Below, piece by piece: positions 3,783 to 55,490 of a stretch of DNA of 64,000 nt. This DNA comes from Patescibacteria group bacterium. Its GTDB lineage: Bacteria > Patescibacteriota > Patescibacteriia > JBDRGY01. The notes beneath the pieces were generated by a model. That model was given only the letters and a program-made list of their open reading frames with translations. It did no database searches and had not been told where the DNA came from. Within the stretch, counting starts at the first letter, position 1. Every line of letters begins with the position of its first letter. Made by a program: the position numbers and the translations under genes. The DNA lies in NCBI GenBank assembly GCA_043817315.1, contig JBDRGY010000004.1:797-64796 (forward strand), read 5' to 3'.

Positions 3783-4604
3783 ATGGATAAAAAACCGAAC
3801 TGGAAACCGACCAAAGCAGAGTATTGGCAATATCTTCCAGCACCCGCACGCCCCTGGCCGAGCGAAGTTGCTTGGTTTGAGAAATACGCTCTTAAGAAAA
3901 AAGAGGAAGGCTTAAAAGATGTTTTAATTTTGGGTTCAACCGTGGAGTTTCGAGCCATGCTCCATAAACACAAAATGAATGTACATGTTGTCGATTTTTC
4001 TAAAGAATTCTACGAGACACTTTCAAGGCAGAAAATGAAATTCAGAAGGGAAGAGGTATTCTATGAACAAAACTGGGTGACAATGGATCTAGGCAAGAAG
4101 TTTGATCTAATTTTTGGTGATTGGGTGCCGGGAGTTTTATACACCAAAGATTACGACAAATTTTATATAAACATAATAAAACACCTAAACAATAAAGGAC
4201 TATTCATCGGCAGAGAATGTTTAAGGCCAAATAAGAATCCGGTTGACCTGGAAAAAGTAGCCAAAGAACACTATAAAAAATACGCTAGCCGGTATTCATT
4301 TTACGAGACCTCAGCCCAATATGCCTATGGTTTTAGCCCGGATCCTGTCACTTCCATGTGGAATATTACCAAAGCCCAGAAAGCCCTTGATGATGTTTAC
4401 AAAAAGAATCTTATGGAAAAAGATGACTTCGATTTTATGACCAAGGCACTTTCTTTTGAGAGTGACGGCAGTATGTCAATAATGGTTAAAGAAGACTTTG
4501 AGAAAGAGATAAAGAAGTATTTCAATATTTTTACAGTTCATCATGTTGAAGAACCATCTTCTGATTGGTTTCCCATTTATGTCCTACAGAAAAAGGGGAA
4601 CTAG
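3783..4604 (+). CDS. hypothetical protein, possible Rossmann-fold methyltransferase-like
   Basis: VLILGSTVEF ... VHVVDFSKEF ... FDLIFGDWV resembles class-I methyltransferase motifs I, II and IV. Weak. Confidence 0.4.
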   Translation: MDKKPNWKPTKAEYWQYLPAPARPWPSEVAWFEKYALKKKEEGLKDVLILGSTVEFRAMLHKHKMNVHVVDFSKEFYETLSRQKMKFRREEVFYEQNWVTMDLGKKFDLIFGDWVPGVLYTKDYDKFYINIIKHLNNKGLFIGRECLRPNKNPVDLEKVAKEHYKKYASRYSFYETSAQYAYGFSPDPVTSMWNITKAQKALDDVYKKNLMEKDDFDFMTKALSFESDGSMSIMVKEDFEKEIKKYFNIFTVHHVEEPSSDWFPIYVLQKKGN

Positions 4605-4619
4605 ATGCCTCCAGAAGAA

Positions 4620-4644
4620 ACAGGGCGAAACACCCTGTTTTTTG
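4620..4644 (+). terminator. rho-independent terminator
   Basis: ACAGGG-cgaaacac-CCCTGT hairpin followed by TTTTTT. Confidence 0.6.
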
Positions 4645-4737
4645 CATTTGACAGATTATTAGTGAAGGAATAAGGTCATATACTAGAGGAATGACAGATC
4701 TTTGACAGAGTTTGGCTAGCTAGAGCCAAAAAGGAGG

Positions 4738-4927
4738 TGGTAACTTCAATACTGATCCTGAATTCTGGGACATGTCAGCTGACGACTACCACTTGTCAGC
4801 CACTTCACTCTGCCTGCCCGGCAACCATCCTGGTGGATGTAATGCCGAGTTGATCGGTGCTTATCCAGCTGATCTGACTCTAGTGGAATACCGATCCTGG
4901 GGGAGTATCAAGGCCATGTATCGTTGA
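4738..4927 (+). pseudogene. orphan 3' cassette or short ORF ending in the island C-terminal motif (...VEYRSWGSIKAMYR*)
   Basis: Frame open from the TAG at 4721. Strong SD AAGGAGG at 4731-4737 but no canonical start nearby (first ATG at 4772). The last 14 aa match the C-termini of the two downstream genes. Confidence 0.35.
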
Positions 4928-4977
4928 GCCTTTTAAGGTTACTGAAGGGTTGGCAACCAGTGAAAGGAGGTTAGGTC

Positions 4978-5727
4978 ATGTTTAGGCATCGAACATTCAT
5001 CTTTTTGATGGTGATGGCGTGTGTGACATTCGGGGCAGAGGCAACTGGACAGAGTGAGCAGTCCGGCCGCGAGTTGGTTTACGCGGAGGATTTCTCGTCA
5101 GACCCCGGCTACGACTCGATGCAGGATCTCTATGCCTTCTGGGATGCATCAGGCGGCAGCTACTTTGCACTCTCGCTGGACGTCAGTTCTGGCCTGGGAC
5201 GATACATGGGATACAGCCCGGAGTTCACAGTCGTCGCGGGCGACTTCACGGTGTCGTTTGACCTGATGGTTCTGGCTCAGGACTGGGGGTGTTATCCCGG
5301 TATCGTTTTTCAGAACACGAATGTACCGGATCCTGCCCAGCCCGATGGGTATCACGTCACCTTCTATGCCAAGTTTTTGTGGAGCGACCATGAAGTGCGC
5401 AAGTTCGCGATCATGCCAGATCAGGGGGAGTACCTTTTGACCCCGAGCTCGCCGAACGTCGGAGAGTGGTACCACTTCGAGGTGGTCTACCACTCCGGCA
5501 GTCAAACCGTCGATTGGACGATTGAGTCAGGCGGAGTGTTCTACCAGGTTGTCGGTGTCTCCTTTCCCCTGTCGACGGGTTTCAACAGGCTCTATATAGG
5601 TGAGATCACTCAGCCTCCTAAATATGGGGAGCAGACGGCGATCCGGGTGGATAATATCTCCGTATGGACCGGGATGGTTCCTGTAGAAAAGACGAGCTGG
5701 GGCAGTGTTAAGGCCATGTATCGTTAG
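4978..5727 (+). CDS. secreted protein, jelly-roll (LamG/DUF1080-like) domain, with conserved C-terminal WGSVKAMYR tail
   Basis: Signal peptide (FIFLMVMACVTFGAEA). SD AAAGGAGG 8 nt upstream. GC-rich codon usage unlike the flanks. C-terminus ...VEKTSWGSVKAMYR*. Confidence 0.6.
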   Translation: MFRHRTFIFLMVMACVTFGAEATGQSEQSGRELVYAEDFSSDPGYDSMQDLYAFWDASGGSYFALSLDVSSGLGRYMGYSPEFTVVAGDFTVSFDLMVLAQDWGCYPGIVFQNTNVPDPAQPDGYHVTFYAKFLWSDHEVRKFAIMPDQGEYLLTPSSPNVGEWYHFEVVYHSGSQTVDWTIESGGVFYQVVGVSFPLSTGFNRLYIGEITQPPKYGEQTAIRVDNISVWTGMVPVEKTSWGSVKAMYR

Positions 5728-5754
5728 ACACGTCAGTGTCAGAGAGGAGGAAGT

Positions 5755-6462
5755 ATGAGACGGGCCTGTCTTACTCTTACGCCGCTGCTGATCATCATTT
5801 TTAGCTGGAGCCTGTGTCTGGCGGACGGTGGTACGGTTTTCTTCATCGTCGACGGTGAGACAGTGGCACAGCTGGAGTGCCAGGAGTTTCCCATGGCCAA
5901 GCCGATCAAGCTGGCTGGCCGAAGTGGCGGTTCTGGCTGCTATCAACGCTCCGGGTTGATCGACAACGTTTACGTCGAACTGGGTGAAACCGGAGTAGTC
6001 TGCAACGAGGATTTCCAGTGCTTCGAGGTAGGTGGCTGGGTTCTCTACGGTGAACCTTCGCCGGTTATCCTGCTTGACTTCGGTAACCCATTACCCTGTC
6101 TGATGACTTCAGGCGACAGTTGGTACGACAGTGGCATATGTTCTGAAGCCCTCTACAATTGGTCAGCCGGATTCCACTTTGCCGCTTATGCTCACGTCGA
6201 TCAACAGGCGGCTTTTCACTCGGTGGAGATGGGAATCGCCGACCAGGATGCCCCCACTGATGAAGGTATCGGTCACGTCATTGGGGTCAATTGGAAAACC
6301 TCTGGCCAAGGCGACTACATCCTGCAGCTGGATACGGACATAGAAACCGTGCAGGTTCCAGCTCCGAGTTGCGGACAGTGGCACTGGATCGAGATCATCG
6401 GTATTCCTACTACCTCAGTCGAGAGTACGGACTGGGGTAGTATCAAAGCGTTATATCGTTAG
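5755..6462 (+). CDS. secreted Cys-containing protein with conserved C-terminal WGSIKALYR tail
   Basis: Signal peptide (LTLTPLLIIIFSWSLCLADG). SD GAGGAGG. GC-rich. C-terminus ...VESTDWGSIKALYR*. Not obviously homologous to 4978..5727 apart from the tail. Confidence 0.6.
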   Translation: MRRACLTLTPLLIIIFSWSLCLADGGTVFFIVDGETVAQLECQEFPMAKPIKLAGRSGGSGCYQRSGLIDNVYVELGETGVVCNEDFQCFEVGGWVLYGEPSPVILLDFGNPLPCLMTSGDSWYDSGICSEALYNWSAGFHFAAYAHVDQQAAFHSVEMGIADQDAPTDEGIGHVIGVNWKTSGQGDYILQLDTDIETVQVPAPSCGQWHWIEIIGIPTTSVESTDWGSIKALYR

Positions 6463-6470
6463 CTCTTTAC

Positions 6471-6497
6471 GGGGTGACCGAAGTCACCCCTTTTCTT
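6471..6497 (+). terminator. rho-independent terminator
   Basis: GGGGTGAC-cgaa-GTCACCCC followed by TTTTCTT. Confidence 0.65.
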
Positions 6498-6501
6498 ATC
6501 T

Positions 6502-6532
6502 AAAAAAAGAGTGCTAAAGGTTTTTAGCACTC
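6502..6532 (-). terminator. rho-independent terminator for the minus-strand tRNA unit
   Basis: GAGTGCTAAA / TTTAGCACTC 10-bp stem. The A-run on plus gives a U-run on minus. Confidence 0.5.
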
Positions 6533-6558
6533 AGGAATATTCTTTTAAGGTAATTTAC

Positions 6559-6635
6559 TGGTCGGAGTGGGGGGACTTGAACCCCCGACCTCAGCGTCCC
6601 GAACGCTGCGCGCTAGCCATCTGCGCCACACTCCG
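6559..6635 (-). tRNA. tRNA-Pro (anticodon CGG)
   Basis: Reverse complement: CGGAGTG TG GCGC AGATGGCTA GCGC G CAGCG TTCGGGA CGCTG AGGTC GGGGG TTCAAGT CCCCC CACTCCG A CCA. Cloverleaf with 7-bp acceptor, T-loop TTCAAGT and encoded CCA. Confidence 0.85.
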
Positions 6636-6878
6636 TTAGAAATTTTTGTTATCTAACCACTTTCTACCAACACCAGATTTCAGGAACCTTTCCCTTTTGG
6701 CGGCTTCTTCTTTTGTTTTGAATTTCTCATAATACATTAGCCAGAACGGTCCATTTTGTCTTGTCCATTTATTTGATCCGTTGTTATGTTCATATAGCCG
6801 TATCTTTGGTGACTTCTTTGTATACCCCACATAACGTTTTTTGTTTTTTGTGCTTCTAAGTACGTAGACATTATACAT
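6636..6878 (-). CDS. GIY-YIG domain protein (YhbQ/UPF0213-like small nuclease)
   Basis: VYVLRS...RYVGYT...RLYEHN matches the GIY-YIG core. Directly abuts the tRNA-Pro. Confidence 0.7.
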   Translation of the reverse strand: MYNVYVLRSTKNKKRYVGYTKKSPKIRLYEHNNGSNKWTRQNGPFWLMYYEKFKTKEEAAKRERFLKSGVGRKWLDNKNF

Positions 6879-6991
6879 TGTTCTTTGATTATTCTAGCCC
6901 CCGCCAGAGGCGGGTCCGCCTTCGGCGGAATCTGCGCTACACCCCGATATGACTATTTTATCAAATCTGGTCTTAAAAAAGAAGCCCGGGA

Positions 6992-7224
6992 TTATGATAA
7001 CTCCCGGGCGGTTCTGGAACGACGGAACAAGAGGCACAGAGGAAAGAAGATCGGCCAGCCGACAGTGCAGAAGAATCTAATGTCGTATTCCTCGCTGTGT
7101 GCCCGGTGCTCGGTCTTTCTATCCGGCCAGGGTACGTCGGCAAACAGGTACTGATAAGAGAGTCGCATGCCGATGAACCAGACTGCCAGCAGGGCATAGG
7201 ACACCACCATACCAATTGGCGACA
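6992..7224 (-). CDS. small two-TM membrane protein, GC-rich, strong SD
   Basis: Start placed at the internal ATG (MSPIGMVVSYALLAVWFIG...) preceded by AAGGAGG 5 nt upstream. GC-rich, like the island genes. Confidence 0.45.
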
Positions 7225-7390
7225 TTTTGCCTCCTTTCCGTCTGAGTAAAGGAACGATTAAAAATGTTAACAAAAAGGATTGTTTTTGTCAATAAATTAG
7301 AGAAATTGAGACATATTGACCGAATTAGCTATTTGTAATAGACTTATAATTGATATTTAATAACAATCTGAAATTTCCGTTTTTTTATCT

Positions 7391-8071
7391 ATGAAAAAAG
7401 TACCGAATCACTTAGGTATAATCATGGACGGTAATCGCCGTTGGGCCAGAAATAGGGGTTTACCCACTTTGGAGGGCCATCGGAGAGGATACAATAAGGT
7501 CAAAAAGGTAGGAGACTGGTGTTTAGACAGGGGTATTAAAATCCTGACTGTTTACGCCTTTTCTACCGAGAATTGGAATAGAAGCAAGAAAGAAGTGGGT
7601 TATTTGATGAAATTACTTAAAAAGGCTCTGACTGATGATATTCAAGAAATGCACCAGAAAAATATCCAAGTCAGAGTAATTGGCCGTGTCTCTCAATTGT
7701 CCAAAGATTTACAAAAGGCGGTTAGAGATGCCGTTAAACTTACCAAAAAGAACACCAAGGGCATTCTCAATATAGCCCTCAATTACGGGGGCCGACCGGA
7801 GATTGTTGATGCTATCCGCAAAGTAGTCAGAAAAAAAGTACCTATCACCGAAGCGGCCATTGCCGATAATCTGTATACCGCCGGTTTGCCTGATCCGGAT
7901 CTGATAATCCGTACTTCCGGAGAATACCGCTTATCCAACTTCTTAACTTGGCAGGCATCTTATTCTGAGCTGATGTTCATCGATAAGCATTGGCCTGCTT
8001 TTACCGAAAAGGATTTGGATAAAGCTATCAAAGAATATCAAAAGAGAAACCGCCGCTTTGGCGGAAACTAA
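7391..8071 (+). CDS. uppS: undecaprenyl diphosphate synthase
   Basis: HLGIIMDGNRRWAR ... TVYAFSTENWNR ... ALNYGGRPEI. Canonical cis-prenyltransferase motifs. Confidence 0.9.
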   Translation: MKKVPNHLGIIMDGNRRWARNRGLPTLEGHRRGYNKVKKVGDWCLDRGIKILTVYAFSTENWNRSKKEVGYLMKLLKKALTDDIQEMHQKNIQVRVIGRVSQLSKDLQKAVRDAVKLTKKNTKGILNIALNYGGRPEIVDAIRKVVRKKVPITEAAIADNLYTAGLPDPDLIIRTSGEYRLSNFLTWQASYSELMFIDKHWPAFTEKDLDKAIKEYQKRNRRFGGN

Positions 8072-50820: not shown

Positions 50821-51294
50821 ATGTCGGATAACACTTTAGGCCAAAAGCGAAGGAGGGACCAAGTGTCTGAATCGAGACAAGGCTTACCTCGAGTTCTTGT
50901 CATCTTAGCCAAGAGAAAATTCAACCGGGACTTGGGAAGCGGTGGGACTCCCACATATTGGTTAGTGCACAGTGAAGTGGTGGAGCTCCATACTTGTACT
51001 ACTTGCCGAGGTTTGATCCGGCAGATTCGAAGTGCTCAGCGCCAGTCCCGACCTTTTGGGGCAGTAGTGGTGGAGGCGACTGATAACGAATCCAGCATTC
51101 GCCAGGAAGTGCTGGAAGAAGCTATGGAGCATATACCGGAAGGTACTACTTTGTTGAAAATAGAAAAGGGGCCGGTCTGTATGCAAGTCTGTTCTTTTGA
51201 CGCTGCGGAAGGCGATTTCGCGGTACGGGGCAACAGTACCAGCGGCGACCGCTTAGCCGCAACCATCATGGCCCTTTGCTCATCAGCACAATAG
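50821..51294 (+). CDS. hypothetical GC-rich protein (start uncertain; GTG at 50857 has a perfect AAGGAGG SD)
   Basis: The listed ORF starts at 50779, but a TTGACA-16-TAATAT promoter lies inside it. Internal ATG at 50821 or GTG at 50857. Confidence 0.4.
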   Translation: MSDNTLGQKRRRDQVSESRQGLPRVLVILAKRKFNRDLGSGGTPTYWLVHSEVVELHTCTTCRGLIRQIRSAQRQSRPFGAVVVEATDNESSIRQEVLEEAMEHIPEGTTLLKIEKGPVCMQVCSFDAAEGDFAVRGNSTSGDRLAATIMALCSSAQ

Positions 51295-51299
51295 TCTAT

Positions 51300-51380
51300 A
51301 CCAGGGCGCTTCCTTAAGAAGCGTCTTTTTAAATAAAAAAGACGTATCCTGGAATCTGGATACGTCTTATGAATAAGGTA
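51300..51380. terminator. pair of convergent terminators
   Basis: GCGCTTC-cttaa-GAAGCG followed by TCTTTTT for plus. AGACGTATCC-agattcca-GGATACGTCT followed by TTTTTTATTT on minus. Confidence 0.6.
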
Positions 51381-51387
51381 CATCTCT

Positions 51388-51642
51388 TCAGCTGTCGTTG
51401 CCTTCGGCAGGTGGCTGCCATTCAGTCAGCAGTCGTTCCGGGACGAAAGTCTTGCCGTGAGGTTCGTCTGACTGGGTGTCGAAAACCTCTACCTCTAGCC
51501 AGTTCTGCGGTCTTTCCCCATTTGGCTTGACTTCGCCAGTCAACCTGAGCCTATTACCCTCCGGAGTCAATTGACCCAGCTTGGTGGTGACCGGAGCACG
51601 GACAGTACAAAAGACAACTTCTCCCTTCTCTGGAACTGACAT
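51388..51642 (-). CDS. small GC-rich protein, family member A (LLTEW family)
   Basis: SD AGGAGA. ...LRLTGEVKPNGERPQNWLEVEVFDTQSDEPHGKTFVPERLLTEWQPP. Confidence 0.55.
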   Translation of the reverse strand: MSVPEKGEVVFCTVRAPVTTKLGQLTPEGNRLRLTGEVKPNGERPQNWLEVEVFDTQSDEPHGKTFVPERLLTEWQPPAEGNDS

Positions 51643-51789
51643 AGGTCTCTCCTGGTATGGGCCTGGACCATCACTTCGACCTTAGCCAGCTCATGCTGCC
51701 GTAAGTGATTACATTTTAGTTCTAATTAGGTTTTTGTCAAGAAATGAGCGCATCGCGTCGGAGACGCGATGCGCTCTGGAAAACTCCTC

Positions 51790-52038
51790 CTAGATTCCCT
51801 TGAACGGCCAATGCCACTCGGTCAGCAGAACCTGCGGAAAAACTGCCCTACCCAACACCTTATCGTCCAGGAAGTTTCTCCTGACCTCTGCTTCAACTCC
51901 GGCAGCTGGCCTGCCTTGCCAGACAACCTGTTCTTCATGACCCGTTAAGATCAGGTAGTGATCGTCTGGGGTTACTTCTCCAAAGTCAGTGTCAAACGGT
52001 TCTCTGACTTTGTGTCTTTTGGCATCGATCAGGCCCAT
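51790..52038 (-). CDS. small GC-rich protein, family member B
   Basis: Start at the internal ATG with SD AGGAGG (MGLIDAKRHK...). ...LILTGHEEQVVWQGRPAAGVEAEVRRNF...RAVFPQVLLTEWHWP. Confidence 0.55.
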   Translation of the reverse strand: MGLIDAKRHKVREPFDTDFGEVTPDDHYLILTGHEEQVVWQGRPAAGVEAEVRRNFLDDKVLGRAVFPQVLLTEWHWPFKGI

Positions 52039-52173
52039 CCCTATCCTCCTGTCGGCGGTTTTTGCCGGCCCAACTACCTGATTACCGAAATGTATTAATA
52101 ATACTATTCTATATTTTCTATTTGTCAAGAAAAAGAGTATAATAATTGTGTAGGATTATTAATCAAAATAGCA

Positions 52174-53538: not shown

Positions 53539-53607
53539 GCTAGTATAAATCAAACAGAACCCGGGTCAATAGGCTTGGGTTCTTATATATAAAAAAACGG
53601 ACGACTA

Positions 53608-53892
53608 TCAAGTCGTCCGGATAAGCCAATCGGGCAGATCTTCGGTCATGATGTGTCTGATCGGTACCACGACGGGACCGTTGTAGGAAGCCTTGCCGCT
53701 CTCCAGCTCCACCTCAATACCGCATTCGAAACGCCAGTGTCCTCGAGGATCGTGGAAGATGGCAATGCCCTCTTCTCCGGTAACCCGGCCGGAAGCACCA
53801 TGAGGGATTTTGACCGTCTTACCATGATGACCCAACACTTCCACTTCACCTACTTCTACCTGTAAGCCTTTCAATTGACTGATTTTCAACAT
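53608..53892 (-). CDS. small GC-rich protein, family member C
   Basis: Start at the internal ATG with SD GGGAGGA (MLKISQLKG...). ...RVTGEEGIAIFHDPRGHWRFECGIEVELESGKASYNGPVVVPIRHIMTEDLPDW. Confidence 0.5.
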   Translation of the reverse strand: MLKISQLKGLQVEVGEVEVLGHHGKTVKIPHGASGRVTGEEGIAIFHDPRGHWRFECGIEVELESGKASYNGPVVVPIRHIMTEDLPDWLIRTT

Positions 53893-54058
53893 GATCCTAT
53901 CCTCCCAAGGAAAGGTGGGGGTTCTTGATGCCCGATTGCTAAGGTACATTTGCCTTATCTTACAGTTTCTCTTTTATTTAGTCAAACCCTGCACCAGACG
54001 GTGCAGGGTAAATTAAAAAGGACGGCGGATAGTTTGCCGTCCAATGAACATGGGCCCT

Positions 54059-54280
54059 CTAGCCCTCGACTGGGTCCAGATGAGTGGCTGGCACCAAGAC
54101 ATGGTCACCTTCGACTACCACTTCGATCAGCAGCCCCTGATCTTGTGAGGGTAGTTTGGCCTCGTGAGCCAGTCTGGCCTCAGTACCTTGGAGCAAAACC
54201 TTGGGCAAGGTGCCGACTCTGACATCGGCCCTCTGGTTGACTATAACTCTGGTTCCTGCCATCAGCTTGCTATTGGCCAT
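54059..54280 (-). CDS. small GC-rich protein, family member D (shorter)
   Basis: MANSKLMAGTRVIV...GLLIEVVVEGDHVLVPATHLDP. Confidence 0.45.
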   Translation of the reverse strand: MANSKLMAGTRVIVNQRADVRVGTLPKVLLQGTEARLAHEAKLPSQDQGLLIEVVVEGDHVLVPATHLDPVEG

Positions 54281-54436
54281 GATGTTCCCCCCTGGTTGTC
54301 GCTCTCCCGTTCTTAAGACCCGAAACAGTTTATTACAATATTACTTATTGATTTTTTTGTCAAGCCCTGCATCAGACGATGCAGAGCAAGTAGATAAAAA
54401 AAGATGGCAGATGCTCTTGCCATCTTGGGCCGTGGG

Positions 54437-54709
54437 CTAGCGGCTCTCATCAACCAGTCCCAGCATGACATCAGTGATGTCGATGACTCCTGGTTCCCGG
54501 TCGGGCCCGATCAAGCAGACCATGCCTCGGTGCACCTGGCCAAACTCATCGGTGAACTCCCGGTCCTCTCCCAGGTAGCGAAACTGGGTGCCGCCCGGGA
54601 ATCGGTAGTTGCGAGGCGAATCATCTTTCTTGATCGGAGCCTCTTTCTGTCCCGGGGCCGGAGACTTTAGCTCCAGCTACTTACCATTTAGTTCTGCCCT
54701 GGTGACCAT
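54437..54709 (-). pseudogene. family member E interrupted by an in-frame TAG after codon 10
   Basis: SD GGGGG then 7 nt then ATG. MVTRAELNGK*LELKSP...RFPGGTQFRYLGEDREFTDEFGQVHRGMVCLIGPDREPGVIDITDVMLGLVDESR*. Stop at 54677-54679. Not in the ORF track because it has no long ATG-initiated frame. Confidence 0.4.
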
Positions 54710-54845
54710 TTGGTTACCCCCTTTTCGGGCCTCCTACCTCGTAGATTTGGCGCCCTGGAATGAACATTTAAACTTAAGGGATATTAAAGAATTTGTCAAG
54801 GCCTTAGCCGTAGTCAAAGCTCTTTTGTCAATGGGCGGCTTTTGC

Positions 54846-55490
54846 TTAGGTCGCCCTTTTTGTTTCCCGGTATAAATGGATAATTCGTTGAATAAAAGTA
54901 AAGTGGGTAAAAATGGCCATAATAATCATCAGGATGACAATAGCGTCTAGGCCCCAGAAATGAGCTAGAAACAAACCAATTATTAACAGGATAAAACGGG
55001 GAGCTCTTTGAAAAAAGCCTATGTTACACTCGATGCCGATCCCCTCAGCCCTGGCCCGGACGTAGGATACTAAAAAGGAACCGATTAAGGCCAACCAGAT
55101 AAATATTACCTGCCAGTCTTTGAGGGAATCGAGGTAGTGAAGATAAATGGCCAAAAAGATTACAAATTCAGAATATCGATCTAGAAAGGAATCAAAGAAA
55201 GCGCCAAAGCTGGAGACTCTATTTTGTTTTCTGGCTACCATTCCGTCGATCACGTCAAAATTGACAGCCAGAAAAGTAATGATACCGCCGATCAAGAAAT
55301 TCCCGAGATAAATAAAATAGGCGGCGATCAAGAACATTACAAATCCCAGAACCGTAACCAGATTAGGATGCACTTTTGATTTGGCCAAGCCATTGGCTAT
55401 GGGCTGCCACAGTTTTAAGTAACTCAGGGAAACAGGGTGGTGGCGGGAAAAGTTGAATCGTGATTCTATCATATCACCATTGTAGCACAT
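54846..55490 (-). CDS. CDP-alcohol phosphatidyltransferase
   Basis: DVIDGMVARKQNRVSSFGAFFDSFLD = DG-x2-AR-x8-G-x3-D-x3-D. Confidence 0.8.
   Translation of the reverse strand: MCYNGDMIESRFNFSRHHPVSLSYLKLWQPIANGLAKSKVHPNLVTVLGFVMFLIAAYFIYLGNFLIGGIITFLAVNFDVIDGMVARKQNRVSSFGAFFDSFLDRYSEFVIFLAIYLHYLDSLKDWQVIFIWLALIGSFLVSYVRARAEGIGIECNIGFFQRAPRFILLIIGLFLAHFWGLDAIVILMIIMAIFTHFTFIQRIIHLYRETKRAT

Follow-up and report, generated by a model that had tools for sequence, protein, structure and literature searches.

Why do three adjacent genes of a Patescibacteria bacterium, whose products are otherwise unlike one another, end in nearly the same short peptide, and why does their DNA stand out from its surroundings? 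The question is raised by an islet of 1.8 kb in contig JBDRGY010000004.1 (assembly GCA_043817315.1), of which we analyzed positions 797 to 64,796 of the forward strand; this 64-kb stretch is called the window, and all coordinates are counted from its first nucleotide. The islet contains three consecutive open reading frames (ORFs) on the plus strand, at 4772-4927 (51 amino acids), 4978-5727 (249 amino acids, fam1) and 5755-6462 (235 amino acids, fam2), which end in VEYRSWGSIKAMYR, VEKTSWGSVKAMYR and VESTDWGSIKALYR, respectively (common form VExx[ST/D]WGS[IV]KA[LM]YR). On balance, we consider it probable that these are horizontally acquired genes that carry an undescribed terminal sorting or docking tag, and the shared ending is referred to below as the tag.

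A preliminary description of this locus had pointed to the high GC content of the two longer genes, to their strong Shine-Dalgarno sites and signal peptides, and to near-identical tails on three adjacent ORFs, and all of these features were recovered. GC content is 0.52-0.57 over 4800-6450 versus about 0.35-0.42 in the immediate flanks, and GC at third codon positions (GC3) is 0.68 in fam1 and 0.61 in fam2 versus 0.37-0.48 in neighboring genes. In the window as a whole (mean 0.424, standard deviation 0.045), the sole long run at or above 0.50 is 4701-6600. AGGAGG-type Shine-Dalgarno sites, AAAGGAGG for fam1 (4964-4971) and GAGAGGAGG for fam2 (spaced by about 5 nucleotides), lie 5-8 nucleotides upstream of the ATG codons. 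Both N-termini are signal-peptide-like over approximately residues 1-23, with basic residues followed by a hydrophobic stretch. The three tag copies, each together with its stop codon, occupy 4883-4927, 5683-5727 and 6418-6462 on the plus strand; they were found both as a family of direct repeats (D1) and in a tail pattern scan.

A relaxed tail pattern searched in all six frames of the window occurred only at these three places, each time immediately 5' of a stop codon. Because the three coding stretches share only 71% DNA identity and differ mostly at synonymous positions, the conservation is at the level of the peptide. This bears on the idea that the element acts as DNA or RNA, such as an integron attC site, a repetitive extragenic palindromic (REP)-like repeat or a regulatory 3' element, with the peptide incidental. 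In favor of such an element, one copy closes each of a row of cassette-like genes that have individual Shine-Dalgarno sites. However, the third-codon changes keep the amino acids, no conserved inverted repeat and no Rfam match were found at the tails, and the peptide motif is kept across genomes of 42% to 74% GC among the matches listed below. Nor does the element resemble attC in its setting, as it lies inside ORFs and no integrase is adjacent. We regard a nucleic acid element as hardly credible.

The bodies of the proteins are a different matter from their tails. The body of fam1 has a putative ConA-like lectin/glucanase jelly-roll fold, and in its AlphaFold2 model residues 3-19 form a helix and the C-terminal tail is disordered. 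No Pfam or NCBIfam match was obtained for fam2, and its AlphaFold2 model was poor (predicted local distance difference test score (pLDDT) of 48.7) and unfit for fold searching. BLASTP between fam1 and fam2 aligned only the 14-residue tail (E=1e-4), in agreement with the preliminary description, which had called the bodies not alignable. Profile-profile comparison added one local match of 40 columns (94% probability) around the "GEWYHFEVV / GQWHWIEII" strand. Judging from these alignments, fam1 and fam2 are not simple paralogues, and they may have a jelly-roll superfamily in common.

The third ORF had been described as an orphan cassette, but it proved to be the 3' end of a truncated gene. The remnant (4739-4927, plus strand; longest start-codon ORF 4772-4927) reads GNFNTDPEFWD...SLCLPGNHPGGCNAELIGA... 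and ends in the tag. In L003, a metagenome assembly of the same locus from another sequencing run, the frame is open for 97 codons, and the last 62 residues of this 97-residue version align to the final 67 of a 477-residue tag-bearing beta-helix protein (BLASTP E=7e-13). Many beta-helix proteins of the donor phyla proposed below share the ending "DPLFC...DF.L...SPC.PGN...CGLIGA..GC...VE..SWG.IK..YR", and the high-GC contig L001 carries a fam1 homologue followed by a beta-helix gene with the same type of ending. Since the remnant matches a beta-helix C-terminus, the left boundary of the islet lies inside a beta-helix gene. If tagged proteins are defined by a signal peptide and a motif within approximately 4 residues of the C-terminus, both fam1 and fam2 belong to the class; the remnant retains the C-terminal motif and is missing its 5' end, and hence any signal peptide.

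Three copies within 1.6 kb, with a 29-nucleotide stretch that is 90% identical in two of them, could reflect mere local duplication or simple paralogy of the genes. The preliminary description had allowed that a tail confined to these three loci would indicate this, but the tail is widespread. We scanned one genome per GTDB species with a 45-nucleotide degenerate DNA pattern encoding VE-x3-WG-x-[IV]K-x2-YR-stop and obtained at least 120 matching stretches in at least 64 assemblies (median GC 65% among the matches listed, to which all statements on listed loci refer). By our own estimate, approximately 2 matches to this pattern were expected by chance. The same pattern had no matches in 2.9 million viral contigs. 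Among the listed assemblies, 33 were named to phylum: 20 Eisenbacteria-type, 6 Krumholzibacteria, 5 Gemmatimonadota and 2 Latescibacteria. With hundreds of unrelated carriers elsewhere, bodies that BLASTP aligns only in the tail and DNA differences that are mostly synonymous, duplication or paralogy as the source of the tails has next to no chance of being correct.

A second search did not require a stop codon. A tail profile built solely from the window sequences and short database matches retrieved 477 of 1.84 billion cluster representatives at E<=1e-3. The strict motif was at the exact C-terminus in 117 of 142 occurrences and no more than 4 residues from the end in 137 of 142; among 749 ORFs called in the listed loci, the motif never ended more than 3 residues from the C-terminus. 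A homologue search with a 40-column tail alignment returned only 9 short proteins. All full-length homologues of fam1 (12/12) and of fam2 (6/6) end in the tag. The homologues from outside the Patescibacteria come from contigs of 63-67% GC, where they lie beside genes for outer-membrane barrels and FlgD_ig-type domains.

Translation of the listed loci gave 158 ORFs ending in the tag, from which we derived a consensus of approximately 16 residues, [TVS]-P-V-E-x-x-[ST]-W-G-x-[IV]-K-[ASG]-[LM]-Y-R. Among 155 tails, positions that the search pattern had left free were also conserved, namely P at -15 (95/155), S or T at -10 (149/155), A, S or G at -4 and L or M at -3. The last residue of the motif was Arg in 154 of 155 and Arg or Lys in all 155. 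A variant with Arg for Lys ends an uncalled ORF of approximately 90 codons (...VRHASWGVIRALFR) at L006:5050-5325, also found in L007-L009, with a fam1 homologue 1 kb downstream and transposase genes of the IS481 and IS3 types nearby.

The preliminary description knew of no signal matching the tail, and this agrees with what we found in Pfam, NCBIfam, PDB sequences and the searchable literature. No Pfam or NCBIfam model covers the tail in the window proteins or in 107 tag proteins from the listed loci; a model of it would have matched nearly all 107 and so headed the list of domains. No PDB chain matched the tail profile, and full-text literature searches, aimed at the motif or at sorting signals of these phyla, turned up no relevant paper. 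In a cluster look-up, the source databases named tag proteins only as "hypothetical protein"; the NCBI entry to which fam2 is identical, on a contig of 137 kb, likewise has the name "hypothetical protein [Patescibacteria group bacterium]".

It had been asked whether all proteins with the tail have signal peptides. This is so for approximately 90% of full-length carriers, although not for all: a simple heuristic found signal-peptide-like N-termini in 107 of the 118 listed-loci carriers that are complete and at least 150 amino acids long and in 68 of 74 carriers from the profile search, and several of the remaining listed-loci carriers gain a signal peptide if a later start codon is used. Approximately 10 carriers from the listed loci are lipoprotein-like, including six tandem paralogues in L037 (1700-6330) in which the lipobox leads into an acidic run (LGCGDDD...) and the ending is a tag variant resembling TWGKIKGIFR. 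The sole clear carrier lacking an export signal, P0033, fuses a NifU_N domain (a cytoplasmic Fe-S scaffold) to the C-terminal ~50 residues of a tag protein of the MAM type and probably reflects a chimeric contig or an error in gene calling. In half of the carriers from the listed loci, a Cys lies no more than 14 residues upstream of the conserved Val.

The bodies to which the tag is attached are diverse. Pfam matches included right-handed beta-helix, NosD, PMP repeats, FG-GAP, MAM, pectate lyase, X25/CBM20, CHRD, PD40 and NHL propellers, and cohesin. Some bodies matched NCBIfam families whose definition rests on their pairing with a different sorting signal, namely choice-of-anchor P, the PEP-CTERM proteins ScyF and PepA, and M36 peptidases that depend on rhombosortase or myxosortase. 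The Cohesin domain of one tag protein was matched by Pfam at E=2e-25. Dockerin-like repeat proteins (DFDW.G.I.P.DF..FA.HFG, recognized by eye) lie beside arrays of small tag genes at L058:5160-5945, L075:1237-1806 and L116:1-668.

The most informative comparison is between two beta-helix proteins from these loci. L070 (457 amino acids, with the tag) and L067 (591 amino acids) share an alignment of 453 residues (E=5e-66) that begins at the signal peptide and extends as far as the last conserved Cys. Beyond this Cys, L070 has 18 residues that include the tag, and L067 has approximately 100 residues that include a type A C-terminal domain of the type IX secretion system (T9SS; TIGR04183) with a score above the cut-off of the model. 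Four neighboring or homologous proteins of the donor loci passed the TIGR04183 cut-off of 23 bits, with scores of 26-32 bits. Since both endings occur on homologous bodies, and genes for T9SS-domain proteins lie in the same loci, the same organisms use both endings on interchangeable bodies. Such an interchange is what defines alternative sorting signals.

The tag might then be a true outer-membrane secretion signal, that is, a miniature alternative to the T9SS C-terminal domain that is read by a translocon and removed, perhaps after P-V-E. Several observations are consistent with this: the tag occupies the type A position in homologous beta-helix proteins, it is strongly terminal, a conserved P-V-E precedes its core by three residues, and among the matches listed it is confined to phyla of diderms in the Fibrobacteres-Chlorobi-Bacteroidetes (FCB) group that also use T9SS-type domains. 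However, copies in tandem or directly behind a signal peptide are unusual for a cleaved export signal, the lipoprotein carriers are already anchored, no candidate translocon was found beside tag genes, and the tag is kept in the Patescibacteria, whose presumed lack of an outer membrane is discussed below. We consider a secretion signal in this strict sense possible but doubtful.

The unusual copies are as follows. A few proteins have 1-9 residues beyond the motif, P0031 and P0043 bear four or five tags in tandem at their C-termini, and P0050, P0035 and P0032, which belong to one family, have one tag right behind the signal peptide and another at the C-terminus. The 14-residue, extreme C-terminal tail of the preliminary description is thus position-specific as proposed, but it is slightly longer, at approximately 16 residues, and is not invariably last. 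These exceptions mark the tag as a modular peptide carried on flexible ends of mature exported proteins, and they show that it has no strict need for a free carboxylate at its Arg. They fit a docking or recognition peptide, of which additional copies would add avidity, better than a C-terminal ligand of the PDZ type or an export signal that is cleaved from the C-terminus in the classical way.

PDZ proteases read C-terminal peptides. On this general ground, a signal for degradation or quality control, or one bound by a periplasmic protease of the PDZ type such as those of the Prc/Ctp family, which would set the turnover of exported proteins and not their location, could look like the short, disordered extension seen here at the extreme C-terminus. 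Yet the trailing residues and the N-terminal or tandem copies speak against a reader of free C-termini, and it is hard to explain why hundreds of unrelated exported proteins would carry a degron in the position of a T9SS domain. We find a role in turnover very unlikely.

These data suggest that the tag is most likely a sorting or surface-docking signal that is read by a component of the cell envelope. The preliminary description had proposed a C-terminal sorting or processing signal; that the motif is real and sits on unrelated signal-peptide proteins is borne out, and sorting as its function is what the context suggests. In the phyla that we propose as donors, the tag is a modular terminal label on hundreds of unrelated exported proteins; it would form a flexible extension past the folded body, and it often lies just beyond a cysteine pair. 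After export through Sec, it would act as a recognition handle for an envelope receptor, which would either keep its carrier at the cell surface or deliver it into or through the outer membrane. As such a signal, the tag would operate alongside the T9SS C-terminal domain of the same organisms.

Several points weigh against this reading. Clustering of neighboring genes over the listed loci (at least 120) revealed no recurrent partner family other than tag proteins, and no candidate receptor, protease or translocon was found; what the clustering did yield was T9SS-domain proteins and, in a few homologous loci, a pair of extracytoplasmic function (ECF) sigma and anti-sigma factors. Patescibacteria are thought to be without an outer membrane and yet have kept the tag, so donor-type machinery may be missing from them and the tag may have a different role there. 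The tandem copies and those behind signal peptides count against the reading where it is taken to mean a cleaved C-terminal export signal. Its conformation gives little guidance: disorder is predicted for the tail of fam1, the fam2 model is too unreliable for structural use, and the hydrophobic moment of the tag does not tell helix from strand. The idea of an amphipathic helix found no support, as the moment is no better than that of shuffled controls and the periodicities of helix and strand have similar scores. Caution is also needed because the taxon labels of the metagenome-assembled genomes are those under which they were deposited and the genome-scan counts are lower bounds.

The ECF-type sigma gene and its zf-HC2-like anti-sigma gene, recognized by eye, adjoin a conserved pair of tag genes in L024, L035, L113 and L119. 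One member of each pair has 2-4 residues beyond the motif.

How did tagged genes come to be in a Patescibacteria genome? From the composition of the islet, the breadth of the tag's distribution and the truncated beta-helix gene, we infer a transfer from high-GC diderms to Patescibacteria. The donor would be a member of the Eisenbacteria/Krumholzibacteria/Latescibacteria/Gemmatimonadota group and the recipient a lineage of Patescibacteria (candidate phyla radiation, CPR); the acquired islet would encode two proteins exported through Sec and what is left of a third.

A chimera made in assembly or binning, in which Eisenbacteria-like DNA was misjoined to a Patescibacteria contig, would also produce a sharp step in GC and closest homologues outside the CPR in organisms of 63-67% GC. 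However, the same arrangement is present in L003-L005, of which two are ENA assemblies and one is a Logan assembly, all from other runs, and both junctions to the low-GC flanks are 97-100% identical in them. Recovery of the same junctions in independent assemblies excludes an assembly chimera. Moreover, L136, a distant relative in the Patescibacteria (48.6% GC overall), has a fam2 gene of 68% identity directly 3' of the same HD-domain gene, together with the leader and terminator of the window (L136:1-1109), and the GC content of the islet (55%) lies between those of host and donors, which suggests partial amelioration. A misjoin is scarcely tenable.

L136 has no methyltransferase-like gene, remnant or fam1 at this locus, and so the gene content of the locus varies among strains. 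The window and L003 are 97-100% identical over 4150-7900 except at the left junction and within fam2. The left junction (4644-4738) differs by indels, with 67-79% identity, and is the sole differing segment of the flanks. A sliding comparison with L003 placed the second difference at 5950-6480 on the plus strand, the 3' two-thirds of fam2, where identity drops to 67-82%. The number of synonymous substitutions per site (dS) is about 2.0 here and that of nonsynonymous substitutions (dN) is 0.19 (dN/dS 0.09), with all substitution types present and no adenine-specific spectrum. These values indicate that the segment is a replacement by a deeply diverged allele, through recombination, under purifying selection.

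Diversity-generating retroelements are common in Patescibacteria, and the divergent 3' part of fam2 might be taken for the variable region of one because a hypervariable 3' segment is sharply bounded between otherwise identical strains. The segment does not look like a target of such an element, however. It is 530 nucleotides long and highly diverged at synonymous sites, the changes involve all four bases at a low dN/dS, and no second copy or template repeat of it is present in the window. For the window, this candidate was rejected, and its probability is negligible. Across the three fam2 alleles of Patescibacteria, among which dS is saturated, the W, G, K, Y and R of the tail are kept and the codons for V, G, I/L and R have changed. 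This pattern of substitutions shows that selection keeps the tag in the Patescibacteria lineage.

The surroundings of the islet were described as a classic integration context. The foreign composition, the terminator and the neighboring tRNA-Pro and GIY-YIG genes are indeed present, but no integrase gene adjoins the islet (ORF list and Pfam scan), and we found no significant att-type direct repeat of the tRNA 3' end, the best candidate (D5, 24 nucleotides, 75%) being at chance level. Of the features of a tRNA-integrated genomic island, the locus therefore has the deviant composition and lacks the integrase and the direct repeats of the tRNA 3' end. An empty-site scan of metagenomes, for which the flanking methyltransferase-like protein was the query, retrieved only non-syntenic relatives of 63% identity.

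On the left, the methyltransferase-like gene (3783-4604) is followed by a terminator-like hairpin at 4615-4643 (plus strand; inverted repeat AAGAAACAGGG...CCCTGTTTTTT). The left junction itself is a low-GC leader with two TTGACA boxes (4644-4738, plus strand), which also lies upstream of fam2 in L136, and the remnant, fam1 and fam2 follow. The islet ends at 6471-6490 (plus strand) with an intrinsic-terminator-like hairpin, GGGGTGACCGAAGTCACCCC followed by TTTTCTT, and the same hairpin is 3' of fam2 in L136. Next is tRNA-Pro (anticodon CGG) on the minus strand at 6559-6635, with its 3' end toward the islet (ARAGORN; Rfam tRNA, 63.8 bits), and then, also on the minus strand, a gene for a protein of 80 amino acids with a GIY-YIG nuclease domain (6636-6878; Pfam PF01541, E=6.4e-16), which has the native low GC content of 0.35.

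Beyond the tRNA-Pro and GIY-YIG genes lies a second GC-rich patch at 6885-7260, near-identical in L003, with an ORF for a membrane-protein-like product of 77 amino acids (6995-7225, minus strand; GC3 0.68) that matches no family. A 17-nucleotide copy of the tRNA-Pro 5' end is present at 6930-6946; it was discarded as a tRNA since Rfam gave no tRNA match. Patches of at least 50% GC at 50900-52100 and 53600-54900 contain only small minus-strand ORFs of 73-113 amino acids that lack the tail. Two of these ORFs share a similar 'LLTEW..P' ending, and no RNA family matched there.

The LPXTG, PEP-CTERM and T9SS-domain signals each led researchers to dedicated envelope machinery, and they made surface proteomes readable from sequence. 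In several uncultured phyla, the tag is borne by hundreds of exported proteins annotated as "hypothetical", and it has no curated model. A profile of the tag would annotate the carriers at once, and phylogenetic profiling could expose the partner machinery. Its upkeep in Patescibacteria is unexpected because this lineage should be without the outer membrane of the donors. It is a concrete clue to gene flow, and possibly also to physical interaction, that links an ultrasmall episymbiont with hosts of one particular group. Every cultivated member of the Patescibacteria is an obligate episymbiont (PMC11623550), and the gene content of Patescibacteria has been shaped by horizontal transfer (PMC12455944). 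One could go further and see in the tag the address label of a new envelope-docking system of the Eisenbacteria and related phyla, with the episymbiont having captured labelled genes of its host, which it maintains and recombines, so that the secreted lectin-like proteins could dock on a receptor of the host surface. We consider this extension unlikely, but if true it would both define a new sorting system and indicate an Eisenbacteria-like organism as the host of the symbiont.

How does the tag compare with systems that are already described? Its architecture differs from that of every described signal, as it has neither a membrane helix nor a folded domain. The preliminary description had likewise emphasized the missing transmembrane helix and a length far below that of the T9SS C-terminal domain, and both points stand. 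Like the tag, the T9SS type A domain (TIGR04183/Por_Secre_tail, FlgD-Ig-like) is found at the C-terminus of unrelated Sec-exported proteins of the FCB group, in the same genomes and at the identical position of homologous beta-helix bodies. However, the type A domain is folded and has approximately 70-100 residues (a 72-position model), whereas the tag has 16 and is predicted to be disordered; the two have no sequence similarity, and the tag can be present in tandem or at the N-terminus of the mature protein. The type A models (TIGR04183/PF18962) matched none of the three window proteins (E<=10) and none of the 107 tag proteins, and among the same proteins there was no NCBIfam match to the type B domain (TIGR04131).

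The tripartite signals (PEP-CTERM/exosortase, LPXTG/sortase, GlyGly-CTERM/rhombosortase, MYXO-CTERM and PGF-CTERM/archaeosortase) are, like the tag, short C-terminal regions of many unrelated exported proteins. They also have a small signature motif, with P-E-P comparable to the P-V-E of the tag, and the bodies of several tag proteins belong to families that bear tripartite signals elsewhere. The approach behind the first descriptions of such signals is set out in PMC1569441 and PMC3237569. Tripartite signals combine the motif with a transmembrane helix and a basic cluster, and the tag is free of any hydrophobic helix. In the tag, P-V-E-x-x is followed by only 10 residues, and none of the models for tripartite signals, TIGR02595 for PEP-CTERM included, matched the tag proteins. 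Similarly, the LPXTG motif and its hydrophobic segment are absent from the window proteins, which had no NCBIfam match of this kind.

Peptides that target cargo to encapsulins or bacterial microcompartments resemble the tag in being short (about 10-20 residues), in following flexible linkers and in occurring at either terminus. They dock cargo onto a receptor protein, but do so in the cytoplasm and on proteins free of signal peptides. Tag carriers nearly all have signal peptides, and there is no resemblance in sequence. The beta-signal of outer-membrane proteins, a C-terminal strand read by the beta-barrel assembly machinery (BAM), is also extremely C-terminal, with approximately 10 residues, alternating hydrophobics and an aromatic residue close to its end. 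Its last residue is aromatic and its carriers are beta-barrel proteins; the tag, by contrast, ends in Arg (Arg or Lys in every listed tail) and is carried by jelly-roll, beta-helix, propeller and other soluble folds, fam1 itself being a putative jelly roll.

At the level of the locus, the islet shares with tRNA-linked genomic islands its foreign composition, the adjacent tRNA 3' end and a strain-variable content. It differs from them in its small size and in having neither an integrase nor a significant repeat of the tRNA 3' end. For the peptide itself, the nearest known systems, the T9SS domain and the PEP-CTERM-type signals, function in a comparable manner; every testable defining feature of these is absent from the tag, which is to be filed separately from both.

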